Made by a program: the position numbers and the translations under genes
Assembly (NCBI GenBank): GCA_958009085.1
Contig: OY253672.1
Location: 1,364,001-1,428,000 of the forward strand
Length of the DNA stretch: 64,000 bases
Source: Protoeuglena noctilucae
Lineage: Eukaryota
Direction of reading: 5' to 3'
In this document: in pieces, positions 2,698 through 31,032 of the stretch
Layout: each line of letters starts with the position of its first letter
Position numbering within the stretch: the first letter of the stretch is position 1
The notes under the pieces: generated by a model
Seen by the model: only the letters and a program-made list of their open reading frames with translations
The model's database searches: none
What the model was told of the DNA's origin: nothing

Positions 2698-5600
2698 CTA
2701 ACCCGAGCGTGACCTCGACAGCACTGCGCCGGCCCCGGCAGGTGCGCTGGCACCAGCACCTGCGCCCCCCGCCTGCCGTGACCGGCGTGAGGGCGACCGG
2801 CCATGAACCGGCCGCGCCTGGCCTAATTGGAAGGGCCCGCTTGCTGGATGGCCCATCCACGCCCCCGTGTCGCCACCGCGCAAGTCCAGGCGCGCCGCCA
2901 CCGCCTCGGCCAGGCTCTTGCCGCCCATGCCAGCCATGCCGTCCTCTGCGATAGGGCCAGGGGCAGAAGGCATGCGATTAATGTATGTGCACCCAACCAC
3001 GACTACCACACGCGCGGTGCACTCCAACTGACCGATTCTTCCATCCAATCGCAGCGCATCTCTAAACAGCCCTCCCCAAGCACCCATCCGCCCATTCCAC
3101 CCAGTGCGCCCCTCGCACTCACTGGGGGGTGTCCAGGTGCGCGAGGGCGGCCCGGCGCTCGATGGCCCGGACGGCGTCACGGAGTTGGGGTCCGACAGGT
3201 TCGAAAGCCGCGACCCCGCGCGGGAGGCGCGCTTCCGGGGCGGCTCGCGCGCCGACGCGTCGCTGTCGGTGCTCGAACGGCGGTCGTGCCGGCCGCCACC
3301 GGGGGCCTCGCCGCGGCGCCGGTGCAGCTCCCCCGCGCCGCGCTTGCCGCCCGAGTCGTGCTTGGCCGGCGGAGCGGGGTTCGACCCCACCGCCCGCCCT
3401 CGGTCGTTCGCCTTGGTCGGGGACCCAGGGCCACGCCCGTCAGCGCCGCTCAGCCCCGCGACGCGCACCCCTCCGTCGCTGCGACGCGCCCGCCCCTCCA
3501 CCCCGCCCCACCGCTCCTCGCCCTTCCCCGCCGCAGCCCCCGCTGCGCGCTCTGCGGCCCTTCCCGGCGACACCGACTGCGCCCGATGCGCACCGCCCCC
3601 CACGTCCCCGTACGCTTCGTCCGAGTTGCCGGAGTGCGTCAGGCCACTCATCGTCTGCGCGGCGGACTCCTGCGGACGGCACGGGGGCGACCTGATCAGT
3701 TTATAAAGACACGCACTGCCAAGGGCCGCCACCCAATACCATTCGCTCGACACGCAGCGAGCCTGCAACGCTTCGGCCAGGTCAGTCCCCGCATTTACTC
3801 AACAACACACGTCGCCCGCCCCGCTCACCCGCCCCACGGCTGCCCCCATGTGCACTGTGATGCGCGATAACCCACGCGACCCCCCCTCGTCGCCCCCCTC
3901 CCATCCGTCGTGGGCCCGGCGCCGCGGCACGTCGCGCCCGGGACTGTCCTCCCGGTCGTTCTCCGTGCTGGGCCTGTCCCAGACCCCCTCGTCGCTCGCA
4001 CGCTCCTTGCCACCCCCGCCCACGTCCCGGTCGGGCCCCGGCTGGCGCCGCCGCCGCCCAGTGCTCTCCGGGGAATGGCGCGCGTGCGATCCCTGCACCT
4101 GCGCATGGCCGCCCTGCCCCATTCCCGCATGCCGCGGGCCCGCGGGTCCGTTGCCCTTGGAAGGGACCCCCTCGCCCCAGGCAGCGGCGCCCTGGGTCGC
4201 CATCTGGGCGTATGCGTTCATCAACGCAAAGTAGCAAGTCCTGCGAGCAGAGCGAGTCGGGCAGTGGCATCGGAGACAATGCAAACAGCACCAGTACAAA
4301 GCATGGATGTGGTTGCAATCCATGCACCGCAAGACGACCCTGCCAGGTCGGCACCGCTTGCACGCACGTGCGCAAGCGCAGTGGCAGCTCACCCGGACCC
4401 GGACATGCACCACCAGCACCGCCCGCATGGCATAGCCTGCGCTCCCGTGCCCCCGTCCGCGGCCGGCGCCCGCGCCCCTCCCATCCACGCCTGCATCATC
4501 CCAACTTGCGCCTGCCACGCTTGCATGTACTGCTGCTGCACCTGCGCCTGGTACATTCGCATCTGAGCGGCGTAGGCGTCCCACGTCGGCGGCGCCTGCG
4601 CCCCGTACGCAGCGTGGGACCCGGCAGTCCACCCCGCGTGACCCGGCGAGGCGGGCGCCTGCGCTGCCACCGGTGGCGCCCAGCCATGCCCCTGCCCCTG
4701 CACATGCCCTTGGCCGTGCTCCTGCCCGTTTGCAAGCCCCTGCGCGCGCGCCTGGACCGCCGCGTCGCTCCCCGCCGACGCCAGAGACCGCAGCGACACC
4801 TCCCGGCGACCCAAAAGCTTCCCGGAGCTCTCGGCCCTGACAGGCGGCGCCGACCGGTCCCCCTCGGCGCCGTGCTTCCCCGCGTCGCGCCCCCGCGCCC
4901 GCGCCGCCTCCTCCGCGGGCGCCAGCGTGCCCGTCGTCGACCGCCGGAGGGGCGAGCCTCCACGGTCCAGGGACCCTCGCCGCGACGGCGCGCCTTGGTC
5001 AACCGAACGGCGCCCGGTGGGCAGCGGGGCCCGGGCGGGTCCCGGCGCGTCCCTCGGGTGGCTGAGCACCGGGAGCGCGCTGCTCCCGGGCGCCTTGGCC
5101 GCCATCATGGCTGCGTTGGCCATGGCGAGCGTGCCCAGCGGCGTCGCCTCCCGCGCCCTCGCTCGCGACTCGGACCCCGCGAGGCTCTCCGAACCCGACC
5201 GAGCGCTGTCCCGCGGGTGCGTACCCGCGCCCAGAGGCCACGTGGACGGCTGGCTGGCCCCGTAGACCTCGTAGCCTGCACTGCCGGGGGACCGGGAGGG
5301 CACCGTGTTGCCACGGCCGGGGCTCGACTGCGTGGTGCGGGGCTCCAGGGACCCGGCGCTCCGCATCGCCGGAGACTCGCGCGACATCCCACCCAGGAAC
5401 TGCGGGGCAAGGCAGAGGGACAGGATGACCGGGATGCGCCACGCGGCACCTGGCATGCAATGAGAGGGTGGGACTTTCTGGTTGGGGCACAGGATTCAGA
5501 CATCGCAGCGCCGCGGGGTGCAATACGGACCTTGCCGTCTTGCACCGACGCGACCCTGGGCATGCCCGGGCCTTGGGGCACCGGCCAAGGGTCGGGCGTG

Positions 5601-6240
5601 CCGGAGGCGGGGACACGTGCCGGGGACTTGAGGCCGGGGACCGGGTGCACGAAGGGCACGAAGCGAAGGGTGCTGGTGAAGTACTTGGCGGTCTTGGCGA
5701 GCATAAGGTCCATCCAGTCGGGGTCCCCGCCGTACGCCTGGCGATGCTGGGTCTCGTACTTGCGAACCAAAACGTGGCTGCGAGAGGAGGAAGCGGATTA
5801 TGAGAGCGGGGTCGCTGGCGCGCGCGGCGCGTCCGCGGTGCGGGCGGGCGGGCCGCGCACCCTTGCTTTGCGGCCGACTTGTGCTCGGGGAGATCGGATG
5901 CAGACACATACGAGTAAGCGCCGCTGCGGTAGTGCTCTCGGCCCGTCACGGTCGACGTCTCCTCGTCGTCGACGTCGATGACGAGGCCCGAGGCGCGGCG
6001 CCGGCCATGCTCCACGGGCGGGGGTGGCTTGGGGACGCGGACTTCTCCTGCCAGGGGGGGAGAGGGGACTGGAAACGCGTTCCTGGAGAGGTTTTGACGG
6101 CGACAAGGCAGCGCGCGAGGAAAGGCAGCGCGAGAGTTGCGCAAATTCTGCTGCTCACCGTGTGGAGCGTCCGCGGGCTCCACCGCCACGCCAAGTGCTC
6201 CGCCGCCCTGGACCGACAGTGGCGGCATAGCCGCAGACAT
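2698..6240 (-). CDS. Unknown multi-exon, largely low-complexity protein with a CGRCWWC..C motif and a Q/M-rich segment
   Basis: About 7 exons chain in phase through GT-AG junctions: ATG 6240; ...AYS|HVLVRKYETQH...; ...MSGSG|TCYFALMN...; ...AVGR|ESAAQT...; ends ...SRSRSG TAG at 2698. No family recognised. Confidence 0.55.
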
Positions 6241-6763
6241 GTTCGTGTCCGGAGCGTCGAGGCCCGCCTGACGAGGTGCAATCCTTGCCCGTGCGCCAAC
6301 CCGCGGCCCAGCGGCCGGGATTCGACAAGGGTCGCGCGCTGATCTAAGAAAAGCTTGAGCTCGAGGACAACTTCAGTTGCGCTGCCACGCCCCCGCGTGG
6401 AATCGACACCCCAGGCGCTCGCATGCGCTCACATCTCGCGCGCATCGCGCCGACGGAGCACGCGTGCAGACAAATAACGACGTCGATTCCTAAAGAATGG
6501 CGCCCGAGCGGCGTCGCACGGCTAAACAGCCCTGAGCCCGGCTAGCGTTTCCTGACAGGGACGGCGGGTCGTCCTCCGCGCATCCGACCCCAGGTGCGGT
6601 TTTCTTTCCAGCTAAAATAACCAGCTGGTCATTTGAGGTTTTTCAAAACCGCCTCCCCGCGCCAGAGCTCGCGCAAGGGGCGCCAAGCGAGGCCAGGCCA
6701 GCGGATGTAGATGCACAACGGGCGTAGGACCTCGCCCATCCGGGTGTGGGCCGCCAAGGGAAC

Positions 6764-8100: not shown

Positions 8101-10039
8101 ATGATACCGTTGCTTCGCACGGTAGAAGGCGCGACCCTGACGGACCCTTCCCGAGACGGCATTCTCCGCTTGTCGCTGCAGGAGAAGCCCCCCCCCGACC
8201 ACTCTATCGTGAAGCTCCGCGCCTACGAGGAGAAGCTCGCGTCGTTGCGGGATAACGTGAGCGAGCACCGGCGGCGGGAGCAGGCGGCGCTGTGGGAGAA
8301 CCGGAGCGTGGGCCGGGCGCAGGCGGGCCTGGCCTCGCTCAAGCTCGAGGAGATGCAGTGGCGCGCGGAACAGGAGCTCCTCCGCCGGCGCGCGGCGCTC
8401 CAGGAGAAGCTCGAAGCCGAGGACCGAGCGCTGAAGGCGGAGATGCTGCGGACGGAGGAGACCCCCGAAGAGCGGAGGGCGCAGCTGGCGGCGCGCGCCA
8501 AGGCTCTGAGCGAGGCCCGGGAGAACGCGCGGCGGGCGCAGGCGGAGGAGCTCATGCTCCGGGCCTTCCGCGAGAACTACGACCCCGTGCGGCAGGAGGA
8601 CTCAAAGGTGCAGACGCTGCGCGCGGCCCAGGACCGCCGGGCCCAGGCCGTGGAGCGCGAGGCGGCCCGGGAGGCGGCCCGGGAGGACGAGGCGGCGTGG
8701 GCGCGGGCGTGGGAGGCGGATCGCCAGAAGAAGGAGGAGAGGTACCGGGAGGACAAGGAGAAGGAGCGTGCCCTCAATGCCGAGACCATCCGCATCCTGG
8801 ACGAGCAGCGGGACCAGTTCGAGGCCCGCGTGCGGCGAGAGCAGGAGGAAGCGGAGCGCGAGACGCGGGAGATGAAGGCGAGCGGGAGCGGCGGGGCCGG
8901 GCGGGTCGTGGAACGGGATGGGCCGGCCCACGTTGCCAGTGGTTCACCGCAGCATCGCCCGGCGCTGTTGCGCAGGAGGAGTGGGCGAGGCAGGACAGGG
9001 AGGCGGAGGAGCGCGCGGCGGAGGCCCGTCGCCTCGAGGCTCGTCGCGTCGCGGAGGTGGCGGCGTTCAACGCCGAGAAGCGAGCGATGGACAAGGCCGC
9101 GCTGGACAAGGACCGCGAGGAGGACATGCGGTACCTCGAGGCGAGTACTGCGCGCTGCGGCACGCGTGACTGGCGGCGCCTGGCTGCAGGACGTAGCGCC
9201 GTGCGCACGCCTGCCCATCCACCCTGGGGCGTCCCTGCTCGCAGATGGCGTTGAAGCAGGCCCGCGACGACGTGGAGCGCGAGCGCCGTGCCAAGGAGTC
9301 GCGCCGGGACCAGATGATGGAGTACCGGCGTCAGCTGGAGGAGCTGATGGAGAAGGAGAGGGAGGACACGGCGGAGCAGGACCGCCTAATCGAGGAGCAA
9401 AACCGCCTGCAGCAGGAGAAGCAGGACGCGCGGCGGCGGGCGGAGGAGGAGGCGCGGGCGGCGCTCATGCGGGACGTCGTCGAAACACGGGCGCAGCAGC
9501 TGCAGGCGAGCATGGCCAGCGTGACGTACCGACCGTGCGGGACCCGGCACTCCGCAGCTGACGCGATGCCCGGGCGCGATGCCAGGGCCTGACTTTGAGA
9601 ACCTTTGTTTGTCTCTGCAGTGGCAGTACGAGCAGCGGCTGATGGAGTTGGAAGAGACGCGCGCCGAGGCGGAGATGCTGCACGCGGAGAACGAGCGTCT
9701 TGCCGAGATGGAGGAGGAGATGCGGCACCAGCTGCGGCAACGGCGCTTGGAGGCGCAGGAGGAGCTTAAGAGGCAGATGGCGGCCAAGCAGGAGCGCCTG
9801 GGGAGGGAGAGGGAGCAGGCGAGATGCGTCGTGCCTTGACGCGCACAAGTGGTCCCCTCGCTTTTCGCTTACGCGCATCGCACCGCATGACGCGCTTCCT
9901 GCCCATGCCGCCGCAGGACCGTCAGGACAACCTCCGCATCCTCAATCGGGACCAGGAGGCCCAGGCCATGATCCAAAAGATCCGCGGCCAGGAGCCCACG
10001 CGATACTTTGGCCGCAAGAAGGTCGACTGGTTCTACTGA
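8101..10039 (+). CDS. CFAP53: Cilia/flagella-associated protein 53 (trichoplein-family coiled coil)
   Basis: Exons 8101-8121, 8182-8877, 8976-9140, 9245-9505, 9621-9818 and 9917-10039, all phase 0. E/R/Q-rich coiled coil with ETPEERRAQLAARAKAL and WEADRQKKEER, ending FGRKKVDWFY. Confidence 0.8.
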
Positions 10040-10209
10040 CGCTTTGTATGCTTGGGTTCCACCGTGCACTTGAATGTGCACTTGAATGCCAGGGCGGAAA
10101 GCAAAGCTTGACGACTGCTGCACGCGCAGTCGGGCGTGAGCCCAAAGGCTTAGACAGCAGCAAATGGCGTGGACTGCGACAATCCCTAAGCACGAACAGC
10201 AACCGGCTG

Positions 10210-10859
10210 TCAGTTCCCACGTCCTGATGCATCCCCGGGGTTCGGTCCTCCCGGCTTGGTAGACCCCTCACCCCCGGCCGATGGAGAGCCTCCCGCCGGC
10301 CCGCTCGCGCCGCTCGGAGCCAGGACCGTCTCGGCGACCGGTGCCGGCGCAGCGTCGCCTTGGCGCGTCCCGCTCCCGGACGGCCCCTCGTCCTGCCCGT
10401 GATGGCTGCACCCACCGCAGTCAGGGCAGTGGTCGTGGTCGTGGTCGCCGTGCTTCTTTTTCGAGCTCTTCTTCACCTTGCGGCGGCTTCGGGGATCGAA
10501 GTCCCCCTCCGAGTCTGCAAACGAAGGGGATGGGACACCGTGCGTCGGGCATCGGGCGTGCAGGGCCTCCCGCAGCCCCAGCGACGCTTGGGCCACGCAC
10601 CGGAGTCCTCGGTGTCGCTCCATTCGCCAAACACGCGAGGTGCGTGGTAGATGCAGCAGCGCTTGCTCGACCGCTTGCCGGCGTCCTCGTTGTCCACCGT
10701 GTCGGGCGACCATGTGACGCTGGTGCGCGGCCGGAGGGGCACGACGAGGTGCTCGATGACATTGTCGTCCTCCTCGTTCTCGCGGCCCGAACCGCGGCGG
10801 CTTGCCTCCGCCGCGCTGCCCCGCACTTGCTCGAGGGCCGAAGAAACCTGGCGCTGCAT
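10210..10859 (-). CDS. PPP1R11: Protein phosphatase 1 inhibitor-3 (PPP1R11/Ypi1 family)
   Basis: Exons 10859-10601 and 10514-10210. [14 protein letters not shown] (RVxW-type PP1 docking motif) is followed by [11 protein letters not shown] and FGEWSD, the family signature. Confidence 0.92.
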
Positions 10860-10888
10860 CGCGAGCGTAGCGGCACGGGGACAGAGGT

Positions 10889-11293
10889 TCAGCCCCAGGC
10901 AGGGGCGCAGGCGTAGTTGACGATGAGCTGGTTGTTCACCGCGTACGCCCGGTGCAGGACGCCCACGCTCTCGTCGAGGGACGGCGCGAACGCAGTGTTC
11001 AGGTACGCGAATACGGAGGTGCGGCCGAGCTGCTGAGAGACGAACGATACCACGTCGCGGAACGGCCTGTCGCCGGCGATCTGCGCGGCCACGGGGGGGC
11101 GGGAGTGGGTCGCGCAACCCGGCTGGGGGTTCCTGGGTCCTCGCGACGCCGCCCTGGACCAAGGACACCGTCACGCGAGCCGGAAAGATGCAAGTGCGCG
11201 AGACGCGTGCGCTCGGGGCACCTTGACTTTGCTGTTCTTCAGGATGGGAGCGTCACCCGTCGCCTTGAAAACGACGATCACTTTCTCATCCAT
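10889..11293 (-). CDS. ATG12: Ubiquitin-like autophagy protein ATG12 (87 aa)
   Basis: Exons 11293-11222 and 11080-10889: [31 protein letters not shown]...[15 protein letters not shown]...[12 protein letters not shown], with the C-terminal Gly intact. Confidence 0.96.
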
Positions 11294-11613
11294 GAGCCAC
11301 CCGTTCGGACGCCTGCGTCGCGAATGCTCGGGCGGCGCTTCTGCGAAGCCCGGAGACAGTCAGCTCGGGACGAAGGTGCTGGCTTGAGACGAAGGTGCGG
11401 GTTGCGGGGCGTGGCTCTTGATGCGCGTGAGGCCACAGTCCGGGAAGCTAAGATGTGATGTGGCAAATCATACAACTTGCCCGGGGGGACGAGGGTGGAG
11501 GCGGGGCATCCTCCTGGCGTAAACGCCAACCCTAACACAAATTTCCTGACAAAAGCGTTGCTTCCTCGCGCAGGCACAAGCTTGACGTACAGAGAACACG
11601 TTTGGCACTTCTC

Positions 11614-11655
11614 ATGGAGCCTCGCTCCGACCTGGGCGTCGCTCGGCGTCGCTAG
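11614..11655 (+). other. Possible 13-codon upstream ORF (MEPRSDLGVARRR*) before the gene at 11677
   Basis: ATG at 11614, TAG at 11653-11655, 21 nt before the next ATG. Only relevant if the transcription start lies upstream. Confidence 0.3.
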
Positions 11656-11676
11656 CTATTCCATAGCCCGGACTCG

Positions 11677-12359
11677 ATGGTCTGGCCCGCCGTGGGGCTC
11701 GCCGCCCTCGTGGTGGCGAAGAAATTGGCAGGTGCGTGGCTTTGGAGCTTCAGGCGGTGCGAGAGACGCGAATTCTGCGCTCGCATGCTGCACAATAGGT
11801 CGGGGCGATCGTGCCGCATGCCCCCGGCCCAGCGCGGGTCCCCAGGGCCACACCTGGAGCCCGCTGACGTAAGTATCGCGTGCATGCAGTGGTTGCTGTG
11901 GCCCAGAGCATTGGGCTGCCCCGCGTGTATCGCTACGGCGTGCGCGCCTCCCGGAAACTGGAAGCGACGCTGCCGGGTGTTGGACTGGGCTACACTGCGC
12001 GCCAGGGCGTCAAGGCGTTCGTGAAGGTGCTTGCAGTCGCGGCAGGGAGTTCTTGTTACTTTGCCGCTGGCCTGCTGAGCCCCTGCGACTGTCTCTCCAC
12101 CCTGGCACCCCCGCAGGTGGGGAAGAAGCTAGACCTGAAGCGCATGGTGGGCGCCAGCAAGAGCAAGCCAGAGGAGCGCCAATTCAGCAGTTCGGCATTC
12201 AGGAAGCAAGAGCAGCGAGTAGGAGGCACGACAGGGCGCGGGCAGGCCCTCACGAGGGGCGCGGCGGTTGGGTGGGTGAAGACGAGGCCTGGGCAAGCTT
12301 GGGAGGTCGCCACCCGGGGAAATGGAACCACGCCGCCCCCTCCCAAGAGCCCCCAGTGA
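11677..12359 (+). CDS. Small basic protein with a hydrophobic N-terminus, function unknown
   Basis: Three exons joined by GT-AG introns: MVWPAVGLAALVVAKKLA|VVAVAQSIGLPRVYRYG...KAFVK|VGKKLDLKRM...PKSPQ*. Confidence 0.6.
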
Positions 12360-28991: not shown

Positions 28992-31032
28992 ATGACGGGG
29001 GGAGTGGATCCCGCCGCTACGGCGACGGAGGTGGACCCCCTCATCGTGCTGGCGAAAAAGGTGAGGCTCACCCTCGCGTGTGCGCTGGATCTGGCGCGAT
29101 GTTTCCGCTCGCCGCTTTCCATCGCGACTTTGGGAGTTCCTGTGCCACGCGAGACGCGTGTCGTCCCCGGAGCAGGCGCGGGGCGAAGCGTACGCGTTGT
29201 GTCCTTCGGACTGCCTTGGGATGGCCCCCGGCATGTGTTGCCGAGTTAAATGCCTCGCCGCGGCTCTGCACATTGCACTTTACACGAAGCTTGGGCTTGT
29301 GCGCGTGCACCTCCTCCCGGGACGCCCCCACGGTCTCTCGATGGTGGCCAGCCGTTTCCAGGCCACCATTGGTGATCTTGCGACGCTCAGGACGCGCTCG
29401 CCGTTGCTTCGACTCTCGTGCTTGCGTCGCTCGCAGCGCTTCCTGCTGAAGCACACGGACGTGGAGGGCGTGGACCGCACAGCGTTGCGCAGCGATATCC
29501 TGTCCTACATCGAGTCCCGGAGCGCGGCTCCCATGTACGACCACTTTTGTCAGAGCCTTGGGTGGGCGCGGGACGCGGCGCTGGCCGAGCGCATGGCCTC
29601 GGCGAACCGCGCGAAGCTGGAGGAGCTGGAAGCCAAGCTCAAGGACGCTGAGGAGAACCTCGGCGATGTGGAGGTCCGGGAAGCGCTGCTGGCCAAGGCG
29701 GACTATCTTGCATCGATCGGGGACCTTGACGCGGCGCTCGCGGCGTACGACGCGACGGGTGCGTGGCGCGACGCAGTTGCTGAATTTCTCCGCGCCAGCT
29801 CCGCCCAGGCACGCCCCGAACACCGCGCGCGCCCTGAAGCACCTCGCAGAGGCCAAGACGATCGCGATGGGTCAGAAGCTGGACCTCGTCTTCAGCTCCC
29901 TGCGCCTGGGCATCTTTTTCGAGGACTGGCACCTGGTGAAGGCCCGCCTGGCCAAGAGCCAGAAGATCTTCGAGATGGGGGCTGACTGGGAGAGGAAGAA
30001 CAGGCTGAAGGTGCGCCGAAGCGGCTGGGATGGGCCGCGCGGCGTCTAGCGTGTCGATGCATGCGCCGGCCTGCGTTTTGCTTCCAGCTGTATGCCGCCA
30101 CTTTTGCCCCACCCCGCAGGTCTACGAGGCCGTGATGCACATGGCAACGCGCAACTTCGAGCGCGCCGCCAACCTCCTGGGCTCTTCCGTGGCCACCTTC
30201 ACCACCGTTGAGCTCATGTCGTATTCCGACTGCATCGGCTACTTTGTCCTGATGGCCATGGTGGCACTCGACCGCCCCCGCCTCAAGAAGGAGGTCATCG
30301 ACTCGCCCGAGGTCCTCTCGGTCATGCCCAAGCTGCCGCACCTGCGCGACTACGTCACGTCCTTCTACGATTGCAACTATCGTGGGTTCTTCCAGGCAAG
30401 GGCAGCGGCAGGCTAAGGGCAGCAACAGGCTAAGGGCAGCGGCAGACTAGACTAAGGGCAGCGACAGGCTAAGGGCTGGCCGTCTGGGCGAGCGGGCACC
30501 CGCGCCGGCCTTGCGAACCACGCAACGTCGCCACCTCCCACCCCACCTCTTCCCTGTCCCTCTTCCCTACCCCCACCTCTTCTCTCACCCACTCTTTATC
30601 CTGCCTCCCCCACCCCCCCGTTCCCCGTCCCCTCCCACTCGCCCTGGCTCACCCCAACACCTCCCGTCCCCACCCCAGGCCCTCTCGCGCGTGGCAGACA
30701 CAGCTGCCGCCGACCCCTACCTCCGCGCCCACGTGCGGCACTACCTGCTTGAGGTCCGGGTGGCCGCGTTCCGTCAGTTCCTCGAGCCCTTCAAGTCCGT
30801 AGAGCTGCGAGTCATGGCTGAGTCATTCGGCATGTCCCCTTCCTTCCTGGATGCCCAGCTGATGGAGCTCATCGTGACGGGGCGGCTGTCGTGCAAGATG
30901 GACCGCGTCGCGGGGGTCATCCAGACCAACCAGCTCGACAGCAAGAACGTCGTGTACCAGAAGACGCTCAAGGACGGGGATGCCCTGCTCACGCGCCTAC
31001 AGAAGCTGTCCAAGGTCACCGACATGGACTGA
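28992..31032 (+). CDS. RPN7: 26S proteasome lid subunit RPN7 (PSMD6)
   Basis: MTGGVD...LIVLAKK|RFLLKHTDV, DAEENLGDVEVREALLAKA, GADWERKNRLK|VYEA, and a PCI C-terminus LSCKMDRVAGVIQTN...LQKLSKVTDMD. Confidence 0.96.
30393..30478 (+). repeat. Intronic minisatellite, unit ~CAGGCTAAGGGCAGCRR
   Basis: About 5 imperfect copies starting at the RPN7 GC donor (CAG|GCAAGGGCAGCGG). Confidence 0.85.

Follow-up and report, generated by a model that had tools for sequence, protein, structure and literature searches.

We analysed a 64,000-nucleotide (nt) stretch of contig OY253672.1 from the marine green alga Protoeuglena noctilucae (hereafter the window), in which the gene for the autophagy protein ATG12 is followed on the minus strand, 29 nt after its stop codon, by the gene for protein phosphatase 1 (PP1) inhibitor-3, also called Ypi1. 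We consider it probable, at roughly 65%, that this locus gives rise to a bicistronic nuclear mRNA in which the inhibitor-3 open reading frame (ORF) is reached by leaky scanning. In this model, one promoter upstream of about position 11465 would drive transcription of a single mRNA, about 1.15 kb long after splicing, that carries ORF 1 (ATG12, 87 amino acids (aa)) and then, 29 nt on and in another frame, ORF 2 (inhibitor-3/Ypi1, 187 aa). Scanning 40S subunits that initiate at the ATG12 AUG would make ATG12, and those that pass this AUG would meet almost no other and would initiate at the inhibitor-3 AUG. That one mRNA carries both ORFs had been proposed in a preliminary description of this DNA; the proposal is now supported by spliced contigs that bridge the two genes, by conservation of the pair, by the lengths of ORF 1 and the spacer and, in direction, by the scarcity of AUG codons, although contigs are not equivalent to proof from a single molecule.

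Gene structures and continuous spliced RNA

We read the minus strand between positions 9600 and 12000 and rebuilt both gene models by script (Table 1). The coordinates previously given for ATG12, the spacer and inhibitor-3 were all reproduced from the sequence, as were the contexts of the two start codons. The two ORFs start and stop independently, and ORF 1 is 264 nt long. The spliced model also returned the single additional AUG noted earlier, which lies at offset +4 of ATG12 and opens a minimal M-R-K-stop frame; it is the sole other AUG between the two start codons in the window. Upstream of the ATG12 start, the nearest ATG is at 11471, beyond the ends of both RNA contigs that cover this region, and there is none within 11294-11464.

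Table 1. Features of the ATG12-inhibitor-3 locus in the window, in the order of transcription
Feature	Position	Strand	Evidence and remarks
5' untranslated region (UTR), ~160-171 nt, no AUG	11294..11464	-	RNA contig ends at 11453 (X3) and 11464 (X1); contig ends are not mapped transcription starts
ATG12 exon 1, 24 codons, start ATG 11293-11291, context CTC ATG G	11222..11293	-	Sequence; Pfam APG12 profile positions 1-21
Mini-ORF M-R-K-stop, out of frame, overlapping the ATG12 start; AUG at offset +4 (11289)	11278..11289	-	Sequence
ATG12 intron, 141 nt, GT..AG	11081..11221	-	Contigs from three RNA runs (two studies) have the joint 11080/11222; the DNA run does not
ATG12 exon 2, 63 codons plus TGA 10891-10889	10889..11080	-	Pfam APG12
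Inter-ORF spacer, 29 nt, ORFs out of frame, no AG dinucleotide	10860..10888	-	Sequence; bridged by X1 record 1 and X3 record 4
PP1 inhibitor-3/Ypi1 exon 1, start ATG 10859-10857, context GCG ATG C	10601..10859	-	Pfam PPI_Ypi1
Inhibitor-3 intron, 86 nt, GT..AG, ~290 nt downstream of the ATG12 stop	10515..10600	-	Joint 10514/10601 in X1 and X3 RNA contigs; not in DNA run X7
Inhibitor-3 exon 2, His/Gly-rich tail, TGA 10212-10210	10210..10514	-	Sequence
3' UTR, ~130 nt, of which ~15 nt are shared with the 3' end of the convergent gene (plus strand)	10078..10209	-	X3 record 4 ends at 10078

Over positions 9700-11900, we compared a DNA run (X7) with the RNA runs X1, X3 and X5, which come from two studies. 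A contig of 1149 nt from X3 (record 4) spans 10078-11453, and one from X1 (record 1) spans 9700-11464; both introns are gone from each, with 0 letters otherwise different, and both contigs continue unbroken past the ATG12 stop, across the spacer and into inhibitor-3. In the DNA run the locus is present unspliced and in a single piece. The contig from the second study (X5) is limited to 10931-11322, within and near ATG12, and has the ATG12 intron removed; it has no bearing on the spacer, and stretches outside RNA cover were given no weight. In X1 and X3, all contig ends lie outside ATG12 exon 2 and the spacer, neither run contains an intron-retaining form, and no loose ends near the spacer were reported in the RNA contigs.

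At the upstream side, RNA cover is interrupted at about 11465-11610 (about 146 nt), and the next contig begins at about 11611; this gap looks like a promoter region shared with the divergent neighbouring gene. At the downstream side, the contig of the convergent gene in X3 (record 3) reaches 10092, so that the 3' ends of the two transcripts overlap at 10078-10092, by about 15 nt, and the two are merged in X1. No TGTAA-type poly(A) signal was seen by eye in the 3' UTR sequence, and this was not used as evidence. Since contigs can merge overlapping transcripts, as that of X1 does, the RNA data fit one mRNA carrying both ORFs and are not proof of a single molecule.

The identities of the two products are clear. 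The spliced ATG12 model is identical to an 87-aa protein database entry (P0152), and its exon 2 matches the Pfam family APG12 (PF04110) with an E-value of 8.8e-14 and 52.1 bits against a cut-off of 22.8, exon 1 alone scoring below that cut-off (E = 0.0077, 17.1 bits). ATG12 is a ubiquitin-like autophagy protein that is joined to ATG5 through a free C-terminal glycine. The natural stop codon leaves such a residue (A-W-G followed by TGA) in the window and in the two related loci, L002 and L055, described in the next section.

The spliced inhibitor-3 model is likewise identical to a protein database entry (P0003, 187 aa). Its exon 1 matches PPI_Ypi1 (PF07491; E = 6.3e-18, 64.7 bits against a cut-off of 27), and its second half, the tail encoded by exon 2, matches no Pfam family; a His-rich tail is common to the window protein and the L002 protein (P0007). 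An exhaustive HMMER search with exon 1 found 794 relatives at E-values of 1e-3 or below, and word-indexed protein searches, run with that exon and with exon 2 of ATG12, gave back the window's own ORFs only, which is uninformative about relatives. In an alignment of 25 inhibitor-3 sequences, N57, E58, S65, K66, C68, C69 and H72 are invariant and W50 is nearly so. The conserved core holds a V-x-W element, which we take to be a PP1-docking-type motif, and an SK-x-CC-I/V-Y/F-H block, the roles of both being assumed here from general knowledge of the family. Among the 150 relatives listed, 40 were scanned against Pfam, picked mainly for a match late in the protein; PPI_Ypi1 was the single family found in all 40 and APG12 was found in none, and these 40 proteins thus include no ATG12-inhibitor-3 fusion. 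Some relatives (P0005 and P0006) carry two tandem PPI_Ypi1 domains, and members of the P0006 cluster are named as foraminiferal (Nonionella, Bolivina).

Conservation of the gene pair in other lineages

A search for adjacent ATG12 and inhibitor-3 ORFs in other green-algal transcriptomes had been suggested in the preliminary description. We scanned metagenome contigs with the 25-sequence inhibitor-3 alignment, which gave 159 confirmed stretches and 80 loci that were kept. These revealed an adjacent ATG12 in two further sequence types. With the window ATG12 as the tblastn query, clear matches were obtained in four of the 80 loci (L001, L002, L003 and L055), all remaining E-values being at least 0.5; a hidden Markov model (HMM) built from three ATG12 sequences and run against the six-frame ORFs of all 80 loci picked out the same four. 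L001-L003 represent one sequence type, with 62% identity to the window over ATG12 exon 2 (E ~1e-23), and L055 represents the other, more distant one (31% identity, E = 1.4e-7 by tblastn; 32%, E = 2e-11 by BLASTP against the window ATG12). All four loci have one arrangement, the ATG12 ORF immediately preceding inhibitor-3 on the same strand. Compared with the window, the core of inhibitor-3 has 68% identity in L002 and 59% in L055. Conservation of both proteins in three lineages, together with the Pfam matches of the window proteins, is indirect evidence that both may be translated.

In L002, ATG12 starts with an ATG at 4438, has its intron at the same position as in the window and ends with TGA at 4865-4867; a 19-nt spacer leads to the inhibitor-3 ATG at 4887, and inhibitor-3, whose product is P0007, is intronless. 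The L002 ATG12 ORF matches Pfam APG12 with an E-value of 2.6e-13. In L055, the upstream ORF ends in A-W-G and TGA and is followed by a 23-nt spacer and the inhibitor-3 ATG at 4800; we call it ATG12 because of its BLASTP match, its conserved hydrophobic pattern and its A-W-G end. The two ORFs are out of frame with each other in all three lineages, and the spacers (29, 19 and 23 nt) have no sequence similarity, which argues against a conserved element resembling an internal ribosome entry site.

The flanks of the pair differ. Window ORFs between 4000 and 18000 match the L001-L003 and L055 loci at the two genes only. Directly downstream of inhibitor-3, L002 has a convergent gene for the proteasome subunit RPN7 (5423-6559), and the neighbour in L055 is a divergent gene for an RNA polymerase subunit (RNA_pol_N). 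The pair has been kept while its surroundings changed, which is what a shared transcript predicts. Recurring as it does with 19-nt and 23-nt spacers and between differing flanks, the adjacency of ATG12 and inhibitor-3 is far beyond chance. ATG12 lies upstream in four of the 46 inhibitor-3 loci that have at least 900 nt of upstream sequence. The window also has an RPN7 exon, at 29065-29985, about 18 kb from the pair, and the presence of RPN7 near the pair in both L002 and the window may be a remnant of a wider synteny.

This conservation bears on whether the assembled RNA might instead represent two overlapping monocistronic mRNAs, with the inhibitor-3 transcript starting inside ATG12 (in its intron or exon 2), the ATG12 transcript being polyadenylated inside inhibitor-3 and the assembler having merged the two. 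Contigs cannot separate overlapping transcripts, X1 having also merged the convergent neighbour, and the X5 contig covers ATG12 only (10931-11322), as a separate ATG12 transcript might. However, separate expression hardly accounts for three lineages having retained a 19-29 nt spacer between the two genes amid unrelated flanks. Moreover, neither X1 nor X3 has a contig that ends in ATG12 exon 2 or the spacer, or that retains an intron, and in all three lineages the ATG12 coding sequence would need to serve also as a promoter and a 5' UTR. We therefore regard two overlapping mRNAs as unlikely.

Start codons and the route to the second reading frame

If both ORFs are carried by one mRNA, translation of inhibitor-3 depends on how ribosomes reach its AUG. 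Nuclear bicistronic or polycistronic loci have been described in chlorophytes by Gallaher et al. 2021 (PMC7896298) and Duenas et al. 2025 (PMC11892635). In Auxenochlorella, the median ORF 1 of such loci is 291 nt and the median spacer 40 nt; the class is marked by a short 5' UTR (medians 54-83 nt), a weak ORF 1 context and few AUGs before ORF 2, and in vivo mutagenesis of green-algal bicistrons supports leaky scanning (PMC11892635). The window locus is like the loci of both papers in having unrelated, separately terminated ORFs on the same strand, a small ORF 1 and a short spacer, as well as a purine at -3 of ORF 2 and colinearity across divergent algae. The scarcity of AUGs before ORF 2 agrees in direction: over the three lineages together, one AUG lies between the starts where 6.9-8.0 are expected (Poisson P = 0.003-0.008, with the lineages treated as independent). 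It differs from them in that its ORF 1 start context is not consistently weak among the lineages, and in the length of its 5' UTR.

Start contexts were compared by the letters at -3 and +4, rather than against a species-specific Kozak consensus. By this measure, ORF 2 starts with G at -3 in all three lineages, and ORF 1 starts with C at -3 in the window. The preliminary description had called the ATG12 start weak, and this holds for the window, where a pyrimidine stands at -3, but not as a conserved property, since L002 has a purine there.

The L055 locus presents a special case. Its RNA_pol_N gene begins at position 4002 of the opposite strand. From 4003 through 4799, the strand that carries the ATG12-like ORF is devoid of ATG, which leaves this conserved open frame without an AUG start; at a GC content of 77%, openness by itself carries little weight. 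ACG and CTG codons in frame with the ORF are found at, and just upstream of, the position homologous to the ATG12 start. The ORF may use a near-cognate start, or it may be decaying. If L055 ATG12 does start at a near-cognate codon, this would be an extreme form of a weak ORF 1 start.

Inhibitor-3 might also be translated from a bicistronic mRNA by reinitiation, either after termination at the ATG12 stop, 19-29 nt upstream, or in part after the M-R-K mini-ORF. The spacers are always shorter than 30 nt and ORF 1 is short, at 87 codons, as reinitiation might prefer; in the window, the three-codon mini-ORF overlaps the start of ATG12, with no further AUG before that of inhibitor-3. Nevertheless, the mini-ORF is absent from both L002 and L055, and the spacers are without a common motif. 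Reinitiation drops after long ORFs and with short spacers, which also counts against it here. In other green-algal bicistrons, a stronger ORF 1 start lowers the output of ORF 2 (PMC11892635), in support of leaky scanning. We favour leaky scanning over reinitiation because of the mutagenesis support within the class, the short and unrelated spacers and the absence of the mini-ORF from the relatives, and we judge reinitiation rather improbable, if somewhat less so than two overlapping transcripts.

Processing of a bicistronic precursor into monocistronic mRNAs, by cleavage in the spacer or by trans-splicing, deserves mention solely because some eukaryotes, kinetoplastids among them, process their precursors in this manner. 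The window spacer lacks an AG acceptor, neither loose ends nor foreign leader letters were reported there, and the spliced contigs pass straight through it, which makes this explanation very improbable.

Several observations weigh against a bicistronic mRNA translated by leaky scanning. The contigs that bridge the spacer all come from one study (X1 and X3), and that of X1 runs on into the convergent downstream gene, an example of the merging of overlapping transcripts by assembly. The 5' UTR, at about 160-171 nt, exceeds the published medians of 54-83 nt (PMC11892635). The ATG12 start of L002 has G at both -3 and +4, and the weak ORF 1 context is accordingly not conserved. In the window, one AUG precedes ORF 2 where 2.9-3.6 are expected, a scarcity that falls short of significance (P(<=1) = 0.21 when the sequence is shuffled and 0.64 when synonymous codons are resampled with the protein fixed); AUG depletion within the window was not accepted as evidence in its own right. 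The test over the three lineages counts homologous, Met-poor proteins as independent. The L055 ATG12 ORF is below the Pfam APG12 cut-off (15.9 bits against 22.8, E = 0.018). Finally, ATG12 was not found upstream in 42 of the 46 loci by tblastn or the three-sequence HMM, indicating that the pairing is lineage-restricted; in 12 high-GC loci among these, Pfam APG12 gave no match in 146 plus-strand upstream ORFs, L002 matching as the control, and for the other 30 loci (322 upstream ORFs) the absence of ATG12 is judged from tblastn and the three-sequence HMM only.

Relation to known loci, the host and significance

The ATG12-inhibitor-3 pair was not found in the supplements of PMC7896298 and PMC11892635, a result that depends on the gene naming used by their authors, and the only autophagy genes found there were ATG10 in Chlamydomonas and ATG101 in Auxenochlorella. 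A search of the literature for ATG12 in connection with polycistronic or bicistronic genes, or for PPP1R11 together with ATG12, turned up nothing relevant. The Chlamydomonas ATG10 bicistron (Cre12.g532314/Cre12.g532327, PMC7896298) and the Auxenochlorella ATG101 bicistron (PMC11892635) resemble our locus in placing a small autophagy protein on a bicistron; they differ in involving other autophagy genes and other partners, and in having long-read support where we have assembled contigs. Another parallel is the CDC26-TTM3 bicistron of land plants and green algae (PMC11892635), in which a small conserved regulatory ORF 1 likewise precedes an unrelated ORF 2 and has been retained across wide evolutionary distances. 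A further likeness is a possible link to nonsense-mediated decay, the ORF 1 stop lying far from the mRNA end; in our locus an intron is placed about 290 nt past the ATG12 stop. The genes of that bicistron are different, and conservation of the present pair extends over three GC-rich algal lineages only.

The window has a GC content of 61-73% and belongs to an intron-containing nuclear genome. One of its exons, from a gene for a FIGL1-like AAA ATPase, shows 62-74% identity to counterparts in the core chlorophytes Apatococcus, Monoraphidium, Tetraselmis, Coccomyxa, Ostreobium and Gonium, compared with 54% for Bathycoccus and about 51% for land plants. This fits a host that groups with the core chlorophytes, where bicistronic loci are documented, a placement that is based on the sequence of this one exon. 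A minus-strand ORF at 27155-28663 matches the Lebercilin ciliary family (E = 5.1e-8), just under the curated cut-off, and hints that the alga is flagellate.

In the plus-strand gene convergent with inhibitor-3, a 98-nt intron at 9819-9916 is removed in the RNA contigs. Within the five-base ambiguity of the alignment, GC..AG borders (donor GCGAGA) are the only sensible choice; the same donor hexamer also fits the ATG12 intron of L055.

What is new here is the gene pair, the arrangement itself being already known in green algae. One may speculate that the pair constitutes an ancient, selected translational switch, in which the choice of start codon sets the ratio of an autophagy factor to a PP1 regulator; in L055, the GC-richest relative, ATG12 translation would then begin at a near-cognate codon and that of inhibitor-3 at the first AUG, and changes in start stringency driven by starvation or stress would shift the output. 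We hold this to be improbable, and there is no evidence for a functional coupling of autophagy to PP1. Should the pairing prove functional, it would hypothetically tie autophagy and PP1 regulation together through translation. The relative that lacks an AUG for ATG12 offers a natural test case for how far initiation at ORF 1 can be weakened. The locus adds a conserved, RNA-supported pair to the catalogue of green-algal nuclear bicistronic genes, and it illustrates that environmental sequence by itself suffices to find and cross-validate such pairs. ATG12 belongs to the core autophagy proteins. Where annotation allows a transcript only a single gene, one of ATG12 and inhibitor-3 will be overlooked, and inventories of the autophagy pathway in algae are affected accordingly.

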